IMG/VR virus record: IMGVR_UViG_2563366807_000009
Length of the DNA stretch: 19,447 nt
Source of the DNA: a virus
Lineage: Duplodnaviria; Heunggongvirae; Uroviricota; Caudoviricetes
Direction: 5' to 3' (one strand)
Shown: positions 654 to 19,091 of the stretch, one piece after another
Position numbering within the stretch: the first letter of the stretch is position 1
Layout of the letters: the number at the start of each line of letters is the position of its first letter
Notes under the pieces: generated by a model
Databases searched by the model: none
Told to the model about the DNA's origin: nothing
What the model saw: the letters and a program-made list of their open reading frames with translations, nothing else
Made by a program: the position numbers and the translations under genes

Positions 654-730
654 GCGCCCTTAGCTCAGTTGGATAGAGCAACGACCTTCTAAGTCGTGGG
701 CCGCAGGTTCGAATCCTGCAGGGCGCGCCA
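654..730 (+). tRNA. argU: tRNA-Arg (anticodon UCU)
   Basis: 77-nt cloverleaf GCGCCCTTAGCTCAGTTGGATAGAGCAACGACCTTCTAAGTCGTGGGCCGCAGGTTCGAATCCTGCAGGGCGCGCCA with encoded CCA end, anticodon loop CT-TCT-AA, GTTCGAATC T-loop. An integrase gene follows immediately, as expected for a prophage attachment tRNA. Confidence 0.95.
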
Positions 731-745
731 TTACAATTCAATCAG

Positions 746-1909
746 TTACGCCTTCTTTATATCCTCCATAATTCCAGAGTGGGACATATTTGGGACATTA
801 TCACCAAAAATGTCGTCTATTTTCCTCGCATGCTCTGTCAAATGATTAGGCGCAAGGTGAGCATACCTACGAACCATTTCTATGGACTCCCATCCGCCCA
901 TTTCCTGAAGCACTGATAATGGGACGCCTGACTGAATCAGCCAGCTTGCCCAGGTGTGTCTGAGGTCATGGAAACGGAAATCTTCAATTCCTGCACGACG
1001 ACAAGCTGATAGCCATGATGTCTTGCTGTCGATGCGCATCTTCCTGACCGCAGGCGTTGATGTTCCATCTGCTCGCTTAGCCGCCTTGGTATGTACAAAC
1101 ACCCATTTGTGATGCTTGCCTATTTGATCACGCAACACTTTACAGGCGGTATCGTTCAGCGCCACACCAATGGCGCGGTTTGATTTGCTCTCTTCTGGAT
1201 TCACCCAGGCAACTCGTCGCTGCATGTCGATTTGTTGCCATTCCAGATTTATGATGTTCGACTTTCTCAGACCAGTTGCCAGCGCAAACTTGACGACAGA
1301 TTTCAGTGGTTCGGGGCACTCATCAATAAGGCGTTTTGCTTCCTCCTTTTCCAGCCATCTGACTCGCTTGTTTCTGACCGCTGGTATCTTGATGACAGGC
1401 GCTTTTTCCAGCCACTTCCAGTCGCGTTCTGCAGCACGGAGAATGGCCTTTATCATGGCAAGATGCTTTGCCTTTGTCTGAGTTGATACTGGCTTTGGTT
1501 CATAAACAGGCAGTTCTTTACCTTTCCTGATGGCGGCCTGAACTTTCTGTTTCCATATTTCTTTCGTCTTTCTGTTATGCATTCTGCTTACAGCAGAGTA
1601 AATCTTTGCCTCCGAGATATCTTTAAGCCTTATACCCTCAAAATGTTCAAGCCAGAACTCAATCCGGCTTTTATCTGAATCGAGAGATTTTTTATCAGCT
1701 TTTTCCTCAAGCCATCTTAGGCAGGCCTCTTCAAAAGTGACATCAGGTAAATCCCCTAGCTTTTCTACTCGCCAGAGTTCTGCTTTTCGCTTGTCGTGCA
1801 ACTCCTGAGCTTGCCGCTTGTCCTTTGTGCCAAGAGATTCCTTAATTCGTTTCCCGCCCGGGAGCGAATACGAGGCATACCATATTTCATTTCTGCGGAA
1901 GAGTGACAT
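746..1909 (-). CDS. intD: phage integrase, tyrosine recombinase (DLP12 IntD-like)
   Basis: 387-aa ORF ending 16 bp from the argU 3' end. C-terminal catalytic region [39 protein letters not shown] carries the R..H-x-x-R...Y signature of tyrosine recombinases. Length and position match the argU-linked integrase of E. coli lambdoid prophages. Confidence 0.9.
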
Positions 1910-3389: not shown

Positions 3390-4066
3390 CGCCATTGCTC
3401 CCCAAATACAAAACCAATTTCAGCCAGTGCCTCGTCCATTTTTTCGATGAACTCCGGCACCATCTCGTCAAAACTCGCCATGTAATTTTCATCCCGCTCA
3501 ACCACGACATAATGCAGGCCTTCACGCTTCATTCGTGGGTCATAGTTGGCAAAGTACCAGGCATCTTTTCGCGTCACCCACATGCTGTACTGCACCTGGG
3601 CCATGTAAGCCGACTTTATGGCCTCGAAACCACCGAGCCGGAATTTCATGAAATCCCGGGAGGTAAACGGGCATTTCAGTTCAAGGCCGTTGCCGTCACT
3701 GCATAAACCATCGGGAGAGCAGGCGGTGCGCATACTTTCGTCGCGATAGATGATCGGGGATTCAGTAACATTCACGCCGGAAGTAAACTCAAACAGGGCT
3801 CTGGCGTCGTTCTCGTACTGTTTTCCCCAGGCCAGCGCCTTAGCATTAACTTCCGGAGCCACACCGGTGCAAACCTCAGCCAGCAGGGTGTGGAAGTAGG
3901 ACATTTTCATGTCAGGCCACTTCTTTCCTGAGCGGGGCTTTGCTATCACGTTGTGAACTTCTGAAGCGGTGATGACGCCGAGCCGTAATTTGTGCCACGC
4001 ATCATCCCCCTGTTCGACAGCTCTCACGTCGATCCCGGTACGCTGCAGGATAATGTCCGGTGTCAT
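3386..4066 (-). CDS. exo: lambda-type Red exonuclease (YqaJ-like 5'-3' exonuclease)
   Basis: 226 aa, [54 protein letters not shown]..., matches lambda Exo as I recall it nearly residue for residue. ATGA overlap with the bet stop. Confidence 0.96.
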
Positions 4067-4848
4067 GCTGCCACCTTCTGCTCAGTGGCTTTTTGTTTCA
4101 GGAATCCAAGAGCTTTCACTGCTTCGGCCTGTGTCAGTTCTGACGATGCACGAATGTCGCGGCGAAATATCTGGGAACAGAGCGGCAATAAGTCGTCATC
4201 CCATGTTTTATCCAGGGCGATCAGCAGAGTGTTAATCTCCTGCATGGTTTCATCGTTAACCGGAGTGATGTCGCGTTCCGGCTGACGTTCTGCAGTGTAT
4301 GCGGTATTTTCGACAATGCGCTCGGCTTCATCCTTGTCATAGATACCAGCAAATCCGAAGGCCAGACGGGCACACTGAATCATGGCTTTATGCCGTAACA
4401 TCCGTTTGGGATGCGACTGCCACGGCCCCGTGATTTCTCTGCCTTCGCGGGTTTTGAATGGTTCGCGGCGGCATTCATCCATCCACTCGGTAACGCAGAT
4501 CGGATGATTACGGTCCTTGCGGTAAATCCGGCATGTGCAGGATTCATTGTCCTGCTCAAAGTCCATACCATCAAACTGCTGGTTTTCATTGATGATGCGG
4601 GACCAGCCATCAACGCCCACCACCGGAACGATGCCATTCTGCTTATCAGGAAAGGCGTAAATTTCTTTCGTCCATGGATTAAGGCCGTACTGGTTGGCAA
4701 CGATCAGCAATGCGATGAACTGCGCATCGCTGGCATCACCTTTAAATGCCGTCTGGCGAAGAGTGGTGATCAGTTCCTGTGGGTCGACAGAATCCATGCC
4801 GACACGTTCAGCCAGCTTCCCTGCCAGCGTTGCGAGTGCTGTACTCAT
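4063..4848 (-). CDS. bet: lambda-type Red beta single-strand annealing protein
   Basis: 261 aa, [86 protein letters not shown]..., matches lambda Bet as recalled. Confidence 0.96.
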
Positions 4849-5225: not shown

Positions 5226-5516
5226 TTAGTGATTCAGACCGTTGCCGCGTCCGTCGAGAAAAACTTCCACGAGCAAGTCACGGGTATAAGTGCGCTCAAT
5301 GCCGCGATGCAGATAAAGTCGTCCGCGTAAATTAGCTGATGCAGTCCAGGTACCATCTTTGCGTTTGACCAGCATTCCTGGCATGACCGCACCGCGATTA
5401 ACGGTCTGCGTTCCGTAATGTTGATGAACCATAAAAACTCCTGCCCGTAAGCTGGGCTGCTGAACATATAAAGACTTCTGCGCGTATTCAGGCGGTGGAT
5501 GGCCGCCGGTTGTCAT
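5226..5516 (-). CDS. hypothetical early-left protein in the kil/cIII position
   Basis: 96-aa ORF preceded by GAGG, first gene downstream of the putative PL. No arginine-rich N-terminus, so not N- or Nun-like. No family recognised. Confidence 0.45.
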   Translation of the reverse strand: MTTGGHPPPEYAQKSLYVQQPSLRAGVFMVHQHYGTQTVNRGAVMPGMLVKRKDGTWTASANLRGRLYLHRGIERTYTRDLLVEVFLDGRGNGLNH

Positions 5517-5707
5517 AACTAAGCCGCCTCGTTGAAGCGACTAAGGTATGAAATGTTGAGTTGATTTCAGCTGGTCACACCGACGTTCACGCGTCCGTTT
5601 CATCCCTCGCACTCCCCGAAGCCTGCTGAAATTCAAGCTGCGGATCTAAGCGGTCATCGCAACGGTGAATCAGGTAGTTGCCGTATCGTTGTGTTGTTGC
5701 GATGAAC

Positions 5708-5790
5708 TTATTTAAAACTATAGTTGTTTTATCGTCAACAACAAAAGTTGTTTTATTGGTTGTTTTAGATATAACTGGTTGTATTTAGGA
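5708..5790 (-). promoter_or_regulatory. OL/PL-like operator-promoter region
   Basis: The 17-mer AAAACTATAGTTGTTTT (5714-5730) is the reverse complement, with one mismatch, of the OR 17-mer at 8144-8160. Further GTTGTTTT-type half-sites lie at about 5746-5754, 5758-5767 and 5777-5785. Minus-strand TTGACG at 5738..5733 is a candidate -35. Confidence 0.5.
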
Positions 5791-5879
5791 TGGATTTATT
5801 TTGTGACTTGAATCGCATAGCGATAACTGAAGCGAGGTTATGGTGGTTTTTTTAACGGTGTGTGTGATGAGGGGAGGGC

Positions 5880-5906
5880 AAAAGAAAACCCGGCACGGTG
5901 GCCGGG
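5880..5906 (-). terminator. Rho-independent terminator ending the cI-cassette operon
   Basis: Perfect 6-bp GC stem CCCGGC/GCCGGG (5889-5894 and 5901-5906), followed on the minus strand by TTTTCTTTT, 8 nt after the stop of the 310-aa ORF. Confidence 0.65.
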
Positions 5907-5914
5907 TAGCATCA

Positions 5915-6847
5915 CTATTCGATTTTTTTAACCATGTAGTTACGTCGTGATGTTCCTAATCTTTCATTGTGAATCTCAGAAACGCTTACTACGAGCGATA
6001 TTCGTTCACCAACTTTATATTTACTTTGAATTTCTCCTAACATATCAATCGGATAAGAAGCCTTTATTTTTCCAAGCTCGCTTGCAATCTCCAATTTCCC
6101 GTACATGGATAAAATAGCAAGTTCGCCTGATATATGCTCATCCGGTAGCTGAATGACCTTCGTTAAAGCTAAGCGAGCATTCAGTTTTTTTATATCTTCT
6201 GAAGAAATTGACACTTGTCTGGTACCATCACTTAAAGGTCCAATCCAAGTAAGATCAAAGTTAAGACTATATTTTTCGCACTCATTTATGATGTTTTTTA
6301 GGTTAGCTGTTGATTGCGAACCAATTTCGGCAATTTTAGCCGTGAATGTTTCTTCATCAATGGATGAGAGTAGTGCAAAAATCTCCTTAACAGCATGACT
6401 GGATACTGTTTCGATGAGCTCGCAAGAACCAGTAGAAAAAGTAACACCTAACTTCGTCGAACCTGGACGCAAGTCTGCCAATCTCATGTCTAATGATTTT
6501 TTAACATCAATCGGCACACGACTAGAATCTTTCCCAGATCCAAGTCGGTAAACTGCTTTCTGTACAAGGGATGCGAGATTACCTGAAATTACAGATAGAA
6601 TATCTAACGGAATAGACCCGAAATCGACCAAAACACCTTTTAATCTCAACTCCATGAAATCACGTAAAGGATGTTGGTTATCGATTGCACGTTGTCTCTC
6701 TCGGAGATCGCTCAGATGGGAGTCAAGTGATCTAAATATAATGTCATCAGCAAATGATCTCCCCTTATTTTGAGCAAGCAGATCCACATCGCGTTGAATG
6801 AACGCAATTCGCTCCTTGAGGGAGTTGAATGTTTTTTCTTCGCTCAT
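5915..6847 (-). CDS. hypothetical 310-aa protein, second gene of the rex-slot cassette; no family recognised
   Basis: Long ORF whose ATG (6847..6845) overlaps the upstream gene's TGA as ATGA. Visibly AT-rich compared with flanking lambda-like genes. Immediately followed by a terminator. No transmembrane segment or catalytic motif that I can assign. Confidence 0.75.
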   Translation of the reverse strand: MSEEKTFNSLKERIAFIQRDVDLLAQNKGRSFADDIIFRSLDSHLSDLRERQRAIDNQHPLRDFMELRLKGVLVDFGSIPLDILSVISGNLASLVQKAVYRLGSGKDSSRVPIDVKKSLDMRLADLRPGSTKLGVTFSTGSCELIETVSSHAVKEIFALLSSIDEETFTAKIAEIGSQSTANLKNIINECEKYSLNFDLTWIGPLSDGTRQVSISSEDIKKLNARLALTKVIQLPDEHISGELAILSMYGKLEIASELGKIKASYPIDMLGEIQSKYKVGERISLVVSVSEIHNERLGTSRRNYMVKKIE

Positions 6848-7317
6848 AACATTACCCTCACGAGGCCTTTAGGATTCTCCTTCCGATCAAAACCAAACCA
6901 CCCTCTCCAGTAACTTCGCCTTTCACTATAATCGATTTCTGGATGATTTTCAGGCAGCAAAAGAACGTCAATGCTGTAGTTTTCTTTAATAAAATCTCTA
7001 TTTAACAATGAGCTGACCAATGGCATCAGCGTGTTTGGCAAAGAGTTTAGGGCCAAATAATCGACGACCACGAGTATATCTATGTCATCAGGTTCAGGTT
7101 TCTCTGTAGTGAATGAACCATCGATCCACACTTCAGAGAAACATAGACACTGCTGATTAACAAGTTTAAATTGCTCAATAAGCTGTATAAAATTACAGTA
7201 TAGCATACTTCTTCTAACGGATTTTGGGAAGGTGTCGACACAAAGAGACTTGATGCCATCACTATCCATATCATGAAATCCTGCTGTAAGAAGAGGTGGG
7301 AAGCTAGGCTTTTCCAT
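6844..7317 (-). CDS. minimal nucleotidyltransferase-like protein (Pol-beta superfamily signature), first gene of the rex-slot cassette
   Basis: 157-aa ORF 81 bp downstream of the cI stop, AAGGA before the ATG. Contains GSFTTEKPEPDDIDILVVV, i.e. G-S, 9 residues, D-I-D, hydrophobic strand, with a later acidic strand YSIDVLLL. This is the hG[GS]-x9-13-Dh[DE]h pattern of MNT-type nucleotidyltransferases. Confidence 0.75.
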   Translation of the reverse strand: MEKPSFPPLLTAGFHDMDSDGIKSLCVDTFPKSVRRSMLYCNFIQLIEQFKLVNQQCLCFSEVWIDGSFTTEKPEPDDIDILVVVDYLALNSLPNTLMPLVSSLLNRDFIKENYSIDVLLLPENHPEIDYSERRSYWRGWFGFDRKENPKGLVRVML

Positions 7318-7398
7318 CCTAAGTCCTTGTTTATGCCATATAGTGTTCTATTTAATATTCTTGAAAAGAGTGTGCCTTAAAAAGCTACAGGCTAATTA

Positions 7399-8088
7399 TT
7401 AACCATGCTTCCTGTACGTCTGCGGCATGCTCCCAATAACCTTACCGAAGATGAACACCCGGTTCATCTCGTCTTTCTCGATCGGGTCCCACGGTGAGTA
7501 GCTTTTGTTATCAGAGATGACCAGCAGCTTATCCTTCATCATTTGCAGGCGCTTTACATGGGCTGTGTCGTCGTACAGAAACGCATAGATACCATCACCG
7601 TCGAAAGATTTAACTGTGATATCAACGAACAGCAGATCACCTGGTTCGATCGTTCCTGACATGCTGTCACCACGCACGTTAATGATGCGGATATTTTCCG
7701 CCTTCCTACCATCGAACATGTGACGAGCATCGTCAAACGAGTACTCAACCGAGCGTAGAACTTCTACAAACTCACGGTTGATGACTCCCGGCCCAGCACT
7801 GACTTCTATATCAAGAACGTCAATCTTGAAGTATTTGGAATGGCTGACAGTTGATTGTATTGGTTGCACTGTACTGTCTGACATATTTCCAACGCCAGAA
7901 GATAACCATTCTGCGCGCACACCCAAAGCGTTCGCGATCTCCACGATTTTAGTTGTTTGATTAGCTTTCCCTGTTTCGATTTTCTGAATAGCAGCCTGGC
8001 TAACCCCGACCAAATCCCCAAGCGCCTTTTGTGTAAGGCCTCGCGCTAATCTGGCTTCTTTAAGTCTTTCTGAGAGTGTTGTTTTCAT
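7399..8088 (-). CDS. cI: CI-like prophage repressor (XRE HTH plus S24 LexA-like autopeptidase domain)
   Basis: Start taken at ATG 8088 (MKTTLSERLKEARLARGLTQKALGDLVGVSQAAIQKIETGK... is the HTH). C-terminal VRGDSMSGTIEPGDLLFVD and AHVKRL supply the Ser/Lys dyad. Not lambda immunity by sequence. The six-frame ORF extends 22 codons upstream into the operator. Confidence 0.85.
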   Translation of the reverse strand: MKTTLSERLKEARLARGLTQKALGDLVGVSQAAIQKIETGKANQTTKIVEIANALGVRAEWLSSGVGNMSDSTVQPIQSTVSHSKYFKIDVLDIEVSAGPGVINREFVEVLRSVEYSFDDARHMFDGRKAENIRIINVRGDSMSGTIEPGDLLFVDITVKSFDGDGIYAFLYDDTAHVKRLQMMKDKLLVISDNKSYSPWDPIEKDEMNRVFIFGKVIGSMPQTYRKHG

Positions 8089-8093
8089 AGTCC

Positions 8094-8166
8094 AAATGTA
8101 CAACCAAGGTTTTATTCCATCAAACGAAAATGGTTGTTGACTAAAAACAACCATAGTTTTAATCTT
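8094..8166. promoter_or_regulatory. OR-like tripartite operator with divergent PRM/PR
   Basis: Three related 17-bp sites spaced about 24-27 bp apart: 8097-8113 (TGTACAACCAAGGTTTT), 8124-8140 (weaker, inverted) and 8144-8160 (AAAACAACCATAGTTTT). TTGACT at 8137-8142 is a -35 for rightward PR. Site 1 lies 9 bp from the cI ATG, suggesting a near-leaderless cI mRNA. Confidence 0.6.
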
Positions 8167-8192
8167 GATTCAAATTAACCACGGAGGTTGTT

Positions 8193-8423
8193 ATGAACCC
8201 AGCTATCAAAACAGCGATCAATATCGTTGGTTCACAAAAGAAACTGGGCGCTGCTTGCGAAGTTTCACAGCAGGCCGTCTATAAGTGGCTTCACAACAAA
8301 GCAAAGGTATCCCCTGAACATGTCGGCAGCATTGTTACGGCTACTGGTGGAGTAGTGAAGGCATACCAGATTCGCCCGGATCTTCCGAAGTTGTTTCCAC
8401 ACACCGAAAAGAACGCAGCTTAA
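8193..8423 (+). CDS. cro: Cro-like HTH regulator
   Basis: 76-aa first rightward ORF, GGAGG 7 nt upstream. HTH-like segment SQKKLGAACEVSQQAVYKWL. Divergent from cI across the operator. Confidence 0.8.
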   Translation: MNPAIKTAINIVGSQKKLGAACEVSQQAVYKWLHNKAKVSPEHVGSIVTATGGVVKAYQIRPDLPKLFPHTEKNAA

Positions 8424-8492
8424 ATTTCCATTTCACGCTCTTTAACAATAAGCAATCAACTTAACAGTCAATTCAAACTAAAGGAGTCAATT

Positions 8493-9032
8493 ATGCAACC
8501 ACTTCCATACCAACAGACTAGCGGATTTAGCCCGACTGCGGTGATAAATCGTTCTCAAACAAAACAGGTGCCAGGCCACGAAAAAATCCGTGATGCCGTC
8601 CGCGCCTGGTCGGCTGTAGATAATCAGGATGTCGTTGCCACACTCATTGTGAATGAGTATCGGGAGCAGGGCGGCGGCACCATCGATTTCCCTGATGATG
8701 TCAGCCGTGCACGCCAGAAGCTGTTCCGCTTCCTCGATAACAAATTCGATTCTGAAAAATACCGAAATAACGTGCGTGAACTGACCCCGGCAATTCTGGC
8801 GGTACTACCGCTGGAATATCGCGGTTACCTGGTTGAGCAGGATAGCTTCATGGCTAGGTTGGCTGAAATGGAAAAGGAACTCAGTGAGGCAAAACAGGCT
8901 GTCATTCTCAACGCACCACGCCACCAGAAACTGAAGGAAATTAGTGAAGGTATTGTATCGATGTTTCGTGTGGACCCAGATCTGGCTGGTCCATTGATGG
9001 CGATGGTTACTACCATGCTGGGGGCGATATGA
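8493..9032 (+). CDS. YdaT-family protein in the cII position
   Basis: 179 aa with AAGGAG Shine-Dalgarno. Segments EYREQGGG and TPAILAVLPLEYR resemble Rac YdaT as I recall it (EYLRQGGG, IPAILAILPREL). Not lambda cII. Confidence 0.65.
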   Translation: MQPLPYQQTSGFSPTAVINRSQTKQVPGHEKIRDAVRAWSAVDNQDVVATLIVNEYREQGGGTIDFPDDVSRARQKLFRFLDNKFDSEKYRNNVRELTPAILAVLPLEYRGYLVEQDSFMARLAEMEKELSEAKQAVILNAPRHQKLKEISEGIVSMFRVDPDLAGPLMAMVTTMLGAI

Positions 9033-11293: not shown

Positions 11294-12796
11294 TTAAATT
11301 GCATCTGCAAACTCTGGGGTTTTTCGCTCAGGTATAATTGATGAGTTGCTGTTGTCACTTTTTTTATTTTCATGATTACGAATAGCCAATGACTCATTAA
11401 AGTCTTTTGCGACTGCTGTCTCAATAAATTCAATTTCTGAATCAGAGTGTTTTTTAACAGCTTCTTTGATCTCATCCAGAGTAACATAGAAAAACTCTTT
11501 TCTACGATTTACAAGATTGACTCTCTTTTTATCGAAGACATCATGTAGTTTTTTTTCTAATGATGGAGCGTCCTCCGAATAAATCATGGCATGTACATCA
11601 AAAATAAAAGGAACAGATGCATCACCGAGCTCATTTACACGGTCTTGCGGATCAAGACGTCGTGTCATGCCTATTTTATAAACATTCTCCCCAAAAGAAC
11701 CTATGTTCGAAATAATATAAACATGACCTTGTTTGGTTTGTTGTGCCATGGATAATGCTCTTTGATGCTTTGATTCAGCCTGCGACAAACTCTGTTCTAG
11801 TTCGGCAATGCGATTTTCGAGGCGCTGCTTCATGTCACCAGTAACTTTTTCCATTTCCTTTCTTGCAGCTTCAATTGCTTTTTTATAACGGCGCTCTTCT
11901 GCCTCTGCGTCTTGCATGGCCTTTTCTATTTCTCGTTGTGCACGCTCCTCCTCTCTCATTTGTGCCCTTATTTCTGCCTGTTCTTCTTTTTCTTTCTGTT
12001 TTTGCTCACGATATTCATGGGTAAGCCACAATTCCTCAAGTTTTTTATTGAGGTATTTAGTGTTTATATATATGTGATTTTGCTCGTTTAGTTTATTTAT
12101 GGCCTCAAATGCCTTTGTGATGCGTTCTTCCATTTTAGTGATGTTTTTCCACGTGCAATTGCTAATTGCAGCATCACATTCATTATTAAATGCTCTAGTA
12201 GTTAGCCTGATATTTCTGTCTGTCATTTTTTTACCCTCTGCTCGAGAGCCTTCAACAGTCCATTGGGTTGTACAATATACTGCGCCAGAGTGGGTTTTAT
12301 CCCGCAGCATTAATTTCTGTTCATCCCTGATGGATTTTATTTTGTTTTTAAATTGCTCTGAATCTTCAAAATTAAAATGAGGTTCGTAAAATCCTAGTTC
12401 GGCTAGCTCAACATCTTCTGAATAAATAGAAATTTGCCTTACTAGTTTATCATATATTTCTTTCTTCTCTTTATAAGTTCTTCTTAGCTCTTGGATTTGT
12501 TTATTGATACCATCCATTTTTTCAATGGTGTTTGTTAGTTCATTATTGGCATTTTCTTTTACTTTTAGGGATTCTTCTTTTATTATGGAGCATTCTTGCT
12601 CTGTTTTCTCAATAAGCTTCTTACATTCTTCTTCTACATTAAAATAATCTGCAAAGCGAGATTTGTATTCTTCATTTTTTTGATTGCTATCACTTAATTC
12701 TAATTGTATTTTTTTGATGCGTTTGATTGCAGCTATATAAAGAACAAGAACAACCAATAAAAATATGATTGCAAGTAATAGAGGAGTTTGAGTCAT
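11294..12796 (-). CDS. membrane-anchored coiled-coil protein with C-terminal GIY-YIG/T5orf172-like nuclease domain; candidate anti-phage defence protein
   Basis: 500 aa, strongly AT-rich, convergent with ren. N-terminal hydrophobic helix (LLLAIIFLLVVLVLYIAAI), long E/K/R-rich predicted coiled coils, C-terminal GHVYIISNIGSFGENVYKIGMTRRLDPQDRVNELG...E, i.e. GIY...YIG...R...E spacing. AAGGAA Shine-Dalgarno before the ATG. Confidence 0.85.
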   Translation of the reverse strand: MTQTPLLLAIIFLLVVLVLYIAAIKRIKKIQLELSDSNQKNEEYKSRFADYFNVEEECKKLIEKTEQECSIIKEESLKVKENANNELTNTIEKMDGINKQIQELRRTYKEKKEIYDKLVRQISIYSEDVELAELGFYEPHFNFEDSEQFKNKIKSIRDEQKLMLRDKTHSGAVYCTTQWTVEGSRAEGKKMTDRNIRLTTRAFNNECDAAISNCTWKNITKMEERITKAFEAINKLNEQNHIYINTKYLNKKLEELWLTHEYREQKQKEKEEQAEIRAQMREEERAQREIEKAMQDAEAEERRYKKAIEAARKEMEKVTGDMKQRLENRIAELEQSLSQAESKHQRALSMAQQTKQGHVYIISNIGSFGENVYKIGMTRRLDPQDRVNELGDASVPFIFDVHAMIYSEDAPSLEKKLHDVFDKKRVNLVNRRKEFFYVTLDEIKEAVKKHSDSEIEFIETAVAKDFNESLAIRNHENKKSDNSNSSIIPERKTPEFADAI

Positions 12797-13341: not shown

Positions 13342-13452
13342 TTGACGACATGATTTATCCGGCGCTATATTCTGTGCGTTGCCGCAAAATCGGCACACGG
13401 GATTGGCGTCCCGGGATACTACTCAACGCATACCGCGTTAAGCGGTTTTTTT
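13342..13452 (+). ncRNA. candidate short terminated transcript (sRNA or attenuated leader) upstream of the Bro-N gene
   Basis: TTGACG (13342-13347), 18-bp spacer, TATATT (13366-13371). Downstream, a GC stem ACCGC/GCGGT with GTTAA loop (13432-13446) runs into a T tract to 13452. The region between is GC-rich and self-complementary. No ORF. Confidence 0.3.
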
Positions 13453-13608
13453 GTGCGCTAAGCACGGCTATGCCCAAATTATGGTGGGCTGTGTGAGGGC
13501 TTCTTCGGAAGCGCCGGGTTTGAGTAGCCGGTTACGCCAACCTTACACAGTTCACCACCAGTCGATTGGCGTCGTTGGTGGTGATGGTTAACCTGATGAG
13601 GTGATACT

Positions 13609-14217
13609 ATGACTACTCAATTAGCATTCCACAAAACGACGTTTACCCCGATTTGCCACAATAACAGAATTTGGCTTACTGCCACTGAAGTTGGTTTAGC
13701 ACTGGAATATGCGGACGATAAAGCAGTTCAGCGCATTTACTCTCGGCACTCAGATGAATTCACAGATATGATGACAAGGGTGGTCAAAGTGACCACCCCT
13801 CGTGGAATGCAGGAGTCTCGAGTATTTAGCCTTCGCGGAGCCCATTTGATCGCCATGTTTGCTCGTACTCCTGTGGCCAAAGAATTCCGCCGCTGGGTTC
13901 TGGATATTCTCGATCGAGAAGTTCAACAATCCCCAATCACAAAACAATTCACTGATAACGAACTTTGCACACTCGCCTGGTTATGGCGAGCAAGTGATAC
14001 GATGTTAACCGCCTGCCAGAACGTTACGCCCCTTCTTCAGGTCGCAGAGCATCGCGAAGCAGGTAGATTCACTTCAATCGAACAAGAATATCCTCGGATA
14101 CTCAACAGGGCGCGAGAAATCCTTGCCAGAGAAACGGCGCATGTAAAATTCCAACCGTGGCAGGATGATAAGTGGAGTCGTGTGTTACCATATTTCCGTC
14201 AGAATCTGTTGCAATAA
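13609..14217 (+). CDS. Bro-N domain antirepressor-like protein
   Basis: 202 aa, GAGGTG Shine-Dalgarno. N-terminal IWLTATEVGLALEYADDKAVQRIYSRHSDEF...RVFSLRGAHLIAMFARTPVAKEFRRWVLDIL fits the Bro-N/antirepressor pattern as I know it. Confidence 0.75.
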   Translation: MTTQLAFHKTTFTPICHNNRIWLTATEVGLALEYADDKAVQRIYSRHSDEFTDMMTRVVKVTTPRGMQESRVFSLRGAHLIAMFARTPVAKEFRRWVLDILDREVQQSPITKQFTDNELCTLAWLWRASDTMLTACQNVTPLLQVAEHREAGRFTSIEQEYPRILNRAREILARETAHVKFQPWQDDKWSRVLPYFRQNLLQ

Positions 14218-17219: not shown

Positions 17220-18302
17220 TTAGAACTGGTAAACCAGACCTACAGCAACGATGTCATCAGTATCAATACCAGCTGTTTTGGTAAACTTACTATCGTCAAT
17301 TAAGTTGATTTTGTAATCAACAAAAGTGGACATGTTTTTATTAAAGTAGTAAGTAGCACCGACATCGACATACTTGACTAAGTCTCGGTCACCATGAACA
17401 CCAAGGTCTTTACCTTTTGACTGAAGGTAAGCAACAGATGGGCGCAGACCGAAGTCAAACTGATATTGTGCTACTGCTTCAAAGTTTTGTGCTTTGTTTG
17501 CAATATGGTTATTACCAAAAACGGTCATATTCTGAGTTTCAGAATATGTGGTAGCCAGATAGATATTGTTCGCATCATATTTCAGGCCTGCAGCCCATAC
17601 TTCCGCATTTTTGCCGGAGGCATTGAATTTGCTCTTACCATAGGCGACCTGACCGTCAGTGCGATCTGATTTAGCATAGGTTGCACCCACGCCGAATCCT
17701 TCATACTCATAAGTAGTGGAGAAACCGAAACCATCACCATTGGCTTCAGTTACGTCAGTGCGGTCATTTTTACCCTGATACTGAGCAGCAAAGTTCAGGC
17801 CATCGACCAGACCAAAGAAGTCGTTGTTACGATAAGTTGCAACACCAGTAGTGCGACCAGTCATGAACACATCTGTTTGGGTCCAGGTATCACCACCGAA
17901 TTCTGGCAGGACGTCAGTCCACGCACCGATGTCGTATGCTACACCGTAGTTACGGCCGTAATCGATTGAGCCGTAATCACCAAATTTCAGGCCTGCAAAT
18001 GCAAGACGGGTTTTGTCTTTGGAAGAACCTTGAGATTCAGCGCGGTTGCCTTTGAATTCATATTCCCACTGACCGAAACCAGTCAGTTGATCGTTGATTT
18101 GGGTTTCACCTTTGAAGCCAAGACGGGCATAAGTAGTATCACCATCATCTGCATCATTAGAGGAGAAGTAGTGCTTAGCATTAACTTTCCCGTACAGATC
18201 CAGCTTGTTACTGTCTTTATTATAAATTTCAGCTGCCTGAGCAGACATCGCCATCAGTACTGATGCAGCTACAGCAGAAATTGCCACTGTTAATTTTTTC
18301 AT
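17220..18302 (-). CDS. nmpC: outer-membrane porin, OmpC/OmpF family (NmpC/Lc-type), apparently intact
   Basis: 360 aa with signal peptide [29 protein letters not shown], porin hallmarks and C-terminal ...VAVGLVYQF. Uninterrupted here. Confidence 0.93.
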
Positions 18303-18875: not shown

Positions 18876-19091
18876 ATGAAATCCATGGATAAGTTAACAA
18901 CGGGTGTCGCCTATGGCACCTCAGCAGGTAGTGCCGGGTACTGGTTTTTACAGCTGCTCGATAAAGTCACGCCCTCACAGTGGGCAGCAATAGGTGTGCT
19001 GGGTAGCCTGGTATTTGGCCTGCTGACGTACCTGACAAACCTTTATTTCAAGATTAAAGAAGATAAGCGCAAGGCTGCGAGAGGTGAATAA
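18876..19091 (+). CDS. essD: holin (phage 21 S-type, EssD-like)
   Basis: 71 aa, [71 protein letters not shown], two hydrophobic helices and a charged tail. Stop overlaps the next ATG (TAATG). Confidence 0.9.

Follow-up and report, generated by a model that had tools for sequence, protein, structure and literature searches.

In bacteriophage lambda, the interval between the repressor gene cI and the left operator (OL) holds rexA and rexB, which are oriented with cI and encode no nucleotidyltransferase (NTase); RexB is a polytopic membrane protein. We describe herein a different pair of genes, A and B, that occupies the same interval in the same orientation and is transcribed in the lysogen. 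The pair (hereafter the cassette) lies in a stretch of 19,447 nucleotides (nt) from IMG/VR virus record IMGVR_UViG_2563366807_000009 (hereafter the window), which is an Escherichia coli lambdoid prophage adjoining tRNA-Arg(tct). It is a member of PDC-M63, a catalogued candidate anti-phage system made up of a small NTase and a partner with an oligonucleotide/oligosaccharide-binding fold (OB-fold). PDC systems are 145 candidates that were picked for having members embedded in BREX, DISARM or type I restriction-modification (RM) loci.

Several other two-gene systems make use of an NTase. AbiE and MenAT each contain one with the polymerase beta (Pol-beta) fold. The type VII toxin-antitoxin (TA) system HEPN-MNT opens, as does the cassette, with a gene for a small Pol-beta NTase that bears a GSx(9-10)DxD motif and a third acidic residue, and this gene overlaps the one behind it. 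In the defense systems Hailong (HalA/HalB) and Clover (CloA/CloB), a nucleotide or oligonucleotide made by a constitutively active NTase keeps the effector off, and NTase mutants are toxic. The Hailong product is an oligodeoxyadenylate that binds the effector HalA, a transmembrane ion channel; CloA, in turn, is a deoxynucleoside triphosphatase (dNTPase). BstA, one of the single-gene defenses found beside prophage repressors, consists of one protein whose fold is different, and it has its own self-immunity element (aba) and no NTase. It resembles the cassette in being expressed in lysogens from a position immediately downstream of the repressor in lambdoid and P22-like prophages (PMC8585504).

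The cassette and the rexAB slot

Proteins A and B were compared with PADLOC, Pfam, PHROG, NCBIfam and the PDB. A matches the PADLOC model PDLC04744 of PDC-M63A (E 7.4e-43) over residues 1-156 of its 157, and B matches six PDC-M63B models, the best of which (PDLC04749, E 4e-42) spans its full length; as in PDC-M63, the genes adjoin each other in this order and share a strand. An initial annotation, made from the sequence alone, had proposed the pair as an undescribed system. As a catalogue entry this no longer holds, the pair being covered by PDC-M63, DUF6932 and two PHROG families; as regards function it does, since neither a phenotype nor a mechanism has been reported, and both PHROG families are without an assigned function. 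The comparison with defense catalogues that it had called for matched both proteins to the PDC-M63 candidate and neither to a characterized defense system. A literature search for DUF6932 returned no paper that mentions the name, and PDC-M63 was named in one study only, although the cassette may have been tested under another name, for example by Brenes and Laub 2025 (Cell Host Microbe 33:1004), whose work on ECOR temperate phages is probably the source of the PhiR phages. The DefensePredictor supplements contain no mention of PDC-M63, and a keyword search for defense systems combining an NTase with an OB-fold gave nothing relevant.

The anatomy of the locus (Table 1) bears out the initial annotation. 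Genes of 157 and 310 codons lie on the cI strand, 81 bp past the cI-like gene, and scans of the spacer revealed neither a minus-strand terminator nor a promoter that scored above the threshold; its ribosome-binding site stands 7 nt ahead of the A ATG. A and B are translationally coupled, overlapping by 4 nt at an ATGA stop-start (6844-6847, read directly from the sequence) that contains the B start codon. Downstream of B, a GC-rich terminator stem (5907 to 5888, ACCCGGC..GCCGGGT) is followed by the T-run TTTCTTTT, which ends at 5878, ahead of operator-like half-sites that cluster at 5693-5782. This cluster fits OL because, in an alignment with PhiR30_1, a phage of other immunity with the same cassette, the window diverges only at about 5703-5810. 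The likely cI start is the ATG at 8088 (MKTTLSERL...), while the longest open reading frame (ORF) extends to 8154, within the operator palindrome. The cassette is also more AT-rich than its surroundings, as had been noted, with a GC content of 39.3% against 45.3% for the window, 52.2% for exo-bet-gam and 47.0% for cI; only 9% of equal-length segments are as AT-rich. Against 11 homologues, the nonsynonymous rate (dN) was 0.11-0.55, and the synonymous rate (dS) was saturated or else gave dN/dS of 0.05-0.13 where dS was computable. These ratios, together with full-length homologues of A and B spread over many genera, indicate that both are real protein-coding genes under purifying selection.

Table 1. 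Coordinates of the cassette, its predicted functional sites and its immediate neighbors in the window
Feature	Coordinates	Strand	Remarks
OL-like operator cluster	5693..5790		GTTGT/ACAAC half-sites
Intrinsic terminator	5878..5907	-	8 nt past the B stop codon
Gene B, 310 aa	5915..6847	-	PADLOC PDC-M63B, phrog_6603; no Pfam family
B C-terminal OB-fold (predicted), residues about 229-309	5921..6163	-	five-stranded barrel, block pLDDT 72-87 (AF2)
B Ser130 codon, GST motif	6458..6460	-	within middle region 59-160
Gene A, 157 aa	6844..7317	-	Pfam DUF6932, PADLOC PDC-M63A, phrog_9194; minimal Pol-beta-fold NTase
A third carboxylate D117	6967-6969	-	conserved in at least 90% of homologues
A catalytic motif G67-S68-x9-D78-x-D80 (predicted)	7078..7119	-	homologue alignment
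cI-to-A spacer, 81 nt	7318..7398	-	AAGGA ribosome-binding site at 7324-7328
cI-type repressor, 229-251 aa	7399..8088	-	HTH_3 and Peptidase_S24
OR-like operator cluster	8078..8192		lies between cI and cro; GTTGT/ACAAC half-sites and a 25-bp palindrome (8130-8154)

That the cassette sits in the rexAB slot, as first proposed from its position between cI and OL, is seen most directly in two prophages of lambda immunity (L047 and L049). These are 98-99% identical to lambda through cro, the right operator (OR) and cI; the identity ends 31 bp past the cI stop codon and restarts exactly at the rexB stop codon, with the cassette filling the gap. In lambda-immunity prophages, the cassette precisely replaces rexA-rexB. 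Homology to the Rex proteins was considered and rejected, in agreement with the initial annotation: BLASTP of A and B against RexA and RexB gave E values of at least 0.12 in all four pairings, and no PADLOC Rex model matched. Placement behind a repressor extends well beyond lambda immunity. The same-strand gene upstream of A encodes a repressor with a helix-turn-helix (HTH) and/or S24 domain in all ten enterobacterial immunity types scanned and in seven of ten divergent prophages. In two divergent prophages the upstream gene overlaps A; its product has an HTH match in one (L148) and no Pfam match in the other (L149). In the isolated phages mEpX1 and Erwinia vB_EhrS_59, the genes run cI, A, B, nutL/N. 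A different setting was observed in the divergent prophage L141 (IMG/VR contig, A at 4001-4414), where the pair follows a P2-type gpD baseplate/tail gene, not a repressor, an arrangement that resembles the defense hotspots of P2-like phages.

The A-B pair is obligate. A lies directly upstream of B in 62 of 62 B-anchored loci that have upstream sequence, and a B-family gene lies directly downstream of A in 80 of 80 A-anchored viral loci (77 full length, one frameshifted and two cut at contig ends). The 4-nt overlap is kept in 75 of these 80, down to 29% A identity. At two loci (L030/L082 and L070) A is intact and B degraded, and the reverse pattern was not found; decay of this kind is seen in Treponema, where A is kept next to a B of which only 92 aa remain. 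Among 5,426 complete genomes of E. coli, 98 have a cassette with at least 99% identity to that of the window, its genes being labeled 'DUF6932 family protein' and 'hypothetical protein', and the cassette of phage PhiR30_1 is 99.4% identical. The pair is also found outside prophages, in Pseudoalteromonas, Bermanella, other bacteria and metagenomic contigs, where its neighbors are a Tn3/mer element, an integrase at an smpB island or a NACHT protein.

Predicted properties of proteins A and B

Protein A scores well above the gathering cut-off of Pfam DUF6932 (92.5 bits against 27; E 4e-26) and has weak Pfam matches to Pol-beta NTase families. Among 43 A homologues, down to 35% identity, G67, S68, D78 and D80 are invariant, and a C-terminal motif, RSYWRGWFGFDR..PKG, is kept as well. 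By its sequence, the GS..DxD..D site reads as an intact, classic catalytic motif of the Pol-beta superfamily. The AlphaFold2 (AF2) model is a confident, globular NTase fold (predicted local distance difference test (pLDDT) score, 96), whose nearest folds by structure comparison are minimal NTases, MNT antitoxins and ANT enzymes. The MNT antitoxins 2rff, 7ae2_B, 8xeh_E, 5yep and 1no5 are among its best structural matches, at a distant level of similarity (Z of at most 6.4).

Protein B has no match in Pfam or NCBIfam and no significant sequence match in the PDB, whether searched as a single sequence or as a 92-sequence B profile, and a Pfam scan of all 92 family members gave only scattered matches at chance level. 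The family is compact: clustering at 50% identity yields 271 clusters, the full-length members listed almost all measure about 300-330 aa, and a profile search for homologues revealed no fused domains or annotated architectures. The AF2 model of B is moderate overall (pLDDT 67). From the N terminus onward, it shows a helical hairpin (residues 10-57), a middle region (residues 59-160) that is the best conserved in sequence and poorly modeled (pLDDT 30-58), a helical segment and the C-terminal barrel. Ser130 is the sole residue besides the start Met that is invariant across the 92 diverse members. No transmembrane segment is predicted, the highest 19-residue Kyte-Doolittle mean being 1.54. A HEPN assignment was considered, as the window protein contains RSLDSH and RAIDNQH, and was rejected: an Rx4-6H motif occurs in only 27 of the 92 family members, R39 in 11 and H44 in 56, and Pfam scans of the window protein and the 92 members gave no HEPN match. 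An internal duplication relating the middle region to the OB-fold was also rejected (hhalign probability below 4%).

Set beside the systems introduced above, the cassette differs from each. Sequence similarity to RexA and RexB is absent, and in contrast to the polytopic RexB, B has no predicted transmembrane segment and the model of A is globular. Unlike in HEPN-MNT, the partner B is not a HEPN protein, and A carries extra N- and C-terminal elements, among them the PKG motif. A has no match to AbiEii/DUF1814 in Pfam or PADLOC, the gene order is opposite to that of AbiE and MenAT, with the NTase first, and B is not of the AbiEi winged-helix type. The cyclic oligonucleotide-based anti-phage signaling system (CBASS) has a cGAS/DncV-like NTase (CD-NTase) of about 300 aa and a Cap effector, and Hailong the transmembrane effector HalA; the cassette contains none of these. 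B is neither an ion channel nor a dNTPase, and the best structural matches of A include no HalB-like chain. A likeness to Hailong and Clover can nonetheless be proposed, in that the OB-fold predicted in B would be a natural receptor for an NTase product. The combination of a minimal NTase with an OB-fold protein matches no characterized defense system.

Expression, phage challenges and possible function

The prophage NC-SV of E. coli NC101 carries a cassette 99.7% identical to that of the window, in the gene order kil, B, A, cI, cro, a YdaT-domain gene, O. RNA sequencing (RNA-seq) of the wild type and an NC-SV deletion strain has been published (PMC12803456, S1 Data), and the two NC101 annotations were matched gene by gene through consecutive locus tags and identical product names. 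In these data, which are counts without length normalization from cultures taken 10 min into infection by a virulent phage and in which transcription start sites are not mapped, the log fold-change (logFC) upon deletion was -11.7 for B (GQ584_RS06840) and -11.1 for A (GQ584_RS06845), ranks 1 and 2 genome-wide by fold-change; it was -9.8 for cI, -6.7 for cro, -5.8 for kil, -5.5 for bet and -5.0 for the replication protein at the O position. Because B and A top the table, exceeding cI, transcription of the cassette in the lysogen matches or surpasses that of cI, as its position had led the initial annotation to predict. In the window, a hairpin on the opposite strand to cI, A and B (AGATGAAC..GTTCATCT, 7449-7469 (+)) lies inside the 3' end of cI, and the NC-SV study places the small RNA (sRNA) svsR at the cI 3' end on the positive strand (PMC12803456). 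A convergent RNA there could interact with the cI-A-B transcript.

On balance, the chance seems about even that the cassette is a lysogen-expressed, two-gene conflict module in which the NTase guards or otherwise regulates its OB-fold partner; the role in defense, the direction of regulation and the trigger are all points that we infer. Temperate phages would carry PDC-M63 as a self-contained moron immediately downstream of the lysogeny repressor, and its transcription would most likely be read-through from the repressor promoter, ending at its own terminator before OL. A, a minimal NTase predicted to be catalytically competent, may act as a constitutive guard of B, a putatively soluble protein with an N-terminal helical hairpin, a conserved middle with an invariant Ser and a C-terminal OB-fold predicted to bind nucleic acid. 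Guarding might be achieved by nucleotidylylation of B, as MNT does to HEPN, in which case the flexible and highly conserved Ser130 loop is a candidate site; or A might synthesize a ligand, a nucleotide or oligonucleotide, that the OB-fold binds, in the way that HalB supplies HalA in Hailong. Alternatively, the OB-fold could sense phage single-stranded DNA (ssDNA). A superinfecting phage would disturb the guarded state, for instance by destroying the ligand or by generating ssDNA or intermediates of replication, and B would then be free to block growth of the phage or the cell. A is favored as the guard because its nearest folds are MNT antitoxins, because it holds the upstream, overlapping 'antitoxin' position, because the characterized two-gene systems HEPN-MNT, Hailong and Clover use the NTase as a negative regulator, and because the only degraded copies seen lost B and kept A.

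Several observations weigh against such a role. In the one study that names PDC-M63, deletion of a prophage-borne PDC-M63AB from E. coli NILS69 left plaquing of 10 virulent phages unchanged, and deletion of the whole of NC-SV from NC101 left plaque counts of 4 virulent phages unchanged (PMC12803456). In the latter study, the effect of NC-SV on plaque size and adsorption, seen with two of the four phages, was ascribed to the sRNA at the cI 3' end, and NC101 without NC-SV showed no growth defect (PMC12803456). Furthermore, B has no recognizable catalytic or membrane-disrupting domain, its middle domain is the part poorly modeled, and the RNA-seq counts carry the limits given above. From what is accessible of both challenge studies, all 14 phages were virulent, and temperate phages were not in the panels. 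The two negative results lower the odds of a broad defense and leave temperate phages unaddressed. A more specific proposal, which we regard as tentative and somewhat doubtful, is that PDC-M63 represents a new class of guard system that replaces RexAB functionally, in which a constitutively active minimal NTase silences a soluble OB-fold/coiled-coil effector and which fires mainly on superinfecting temperate phages; silencing may proceed via Ser nucleotidylylation or an oligonucleotide ligand. Firing mainly on temperate phages would explain the virulent-phage negatives.

The roles might instead be reversed, with A a toxic NTase that modifies tRNA or another nucleic acid, like MenT and AbiEii, and B a sensor or antitoxin whose OB-fold detects phage nucleic acid. 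A clear catalytic site is present in A alone, AbiE and MenAT are established examples of systems with NTase toxins, and the single invariant residue of B, Met aside, suits a binding or regulatory protein. Nonetheless, we consider this arrangement unlikely, given that A lacks an AbiEii/DUF1814 match, folds nearest to MNT-type antitoxins and ANT enzymes rather than to MenT, and stands in the usual antitoxin position; moreover, at both loci found with one degraded gene, it is B that has decayed and A that is intact, as would be expected if B were harmful, although the numbers are tiny. The overlapping architecture and MNT-like first gene also suit a TA or addiction module that stabilizes a prophage or genomic island and plays no part against other phages, as do its occurrence on many kinds of mobile elements and the negative results of the published challenges. 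That explanation seems quite unlikely in view of the consistent placement in a lysogen-expressed exclusion slot, with exact replacement of rexAB, and of PDC family members embedded in BREX, DISARM or RM systems; an integrated prophage gains little from post-segregational killing, and loss of NC-SV caused NC101 no growth defect.

We see only a slim chance that the cassette serves lysogenic conversion or regulation outside phage conflict, whether as a small-molecule (antibiotic) NTase or as a modulator of the phage's own lysis-lysogeny switch. A has 157 aa against about 250 aa in ANT enzymes and lacks their C-terminal substrate-binding domain, and an obligate OB-fold partner is not expected of a resistance enzyme; a role specific to the switch is made less likely by the pairs found outside prophages, which have no repressor close by. 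If the lysogen-expressed conflict module that we prefer is active, it would provide widespread immunity expressed together with the repressor, given the near-identical allele in 98 E. coli genomes and the 271 clusters of the B family. The exact exchange for rexAB and the recurrence behind unrelated repressors suggest that the post-repressor slot is a general place to seek defenses that act in lysogens. Moreover, a strong prophage transcript that has no effect on virulent phages suggests that all-virulent panels may miss prophage defenses.

Other features of the prophage

A tRNA-Arg(tct) gene at 654-730 (+) lies directly beside the integrase gene at 746-1909 (-) and is the likely attachment site and prophage end. 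NC-SV has the same cassette, yet is integrated at icd, which indicates that the immunity/cassette region moves between prophages with different integration sites. Immunity is also exchanged around a constant cassette, as comparison of window positions 5703-5810 and 7850-8492 with L001 and L162 revealed. PhiR30_1 differs from the window only at the OL operators (about 5703-5810) and in the N-terminal part of cI. NC-SV matches the window over OL, both cassette genes and the C-terminal portion of cI, with no megablast match at about 7850-8492, a stretch that covers the cI N-terminus, OR and cro.

Between the OL/PL region and a kil-like gene (5226-5516), the minus strand at 5517-5700 has no N-like ORF of at least 40 aa. 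Lambda and mEpX1 differ in having N there, and early antitermination may work differently in the window. The start position annotated for 'Kil' in PhiR30_1 reads, in the window, into a stop after about 20 codons. The gene at the cII position (8493-9032 (+)) encodes a YdaT_toxin domain (E 8.5e-30) and not a lambda-type CII.

A 500-aa gene at 11294-12796 (-), between ren and ninB, lies where the window is richest in AT (GC 0.29-0.39); its product matches PADLOC PD-Lambda-1 (1.9e-198) and contains DUF4041 and T5orf172/MUG113 domains. SNIPE is a recently described membrane nuclease that contains DUF4041 (PMC13190303). If the gene encodes a SNIPE system, then the prophage holds a validated defense in a second moron slot. 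Farther on, the Rfam families isrK (58.7 bits) and C4 antisense RNA (74.8 bits) match back to back at 13380-13562 (+) and are followed by a Bro-N/P22 antirepressor-like gene (13609-14217 (+)). Together these look like an antisense-controlled antirepressor module of the P1/P7 style in a lambdoid prophage. In the late region, just upstream of a holin-like gene (18876-19091), a full-length OmpC-type porin gene (Porin_1, E 2e-151) is present at 17220-18302 (-). Its counterpart in NC-SV, with a logFC of -7.2 in the NC101 RNA-seq, is likewise transcribed in the lysogen.

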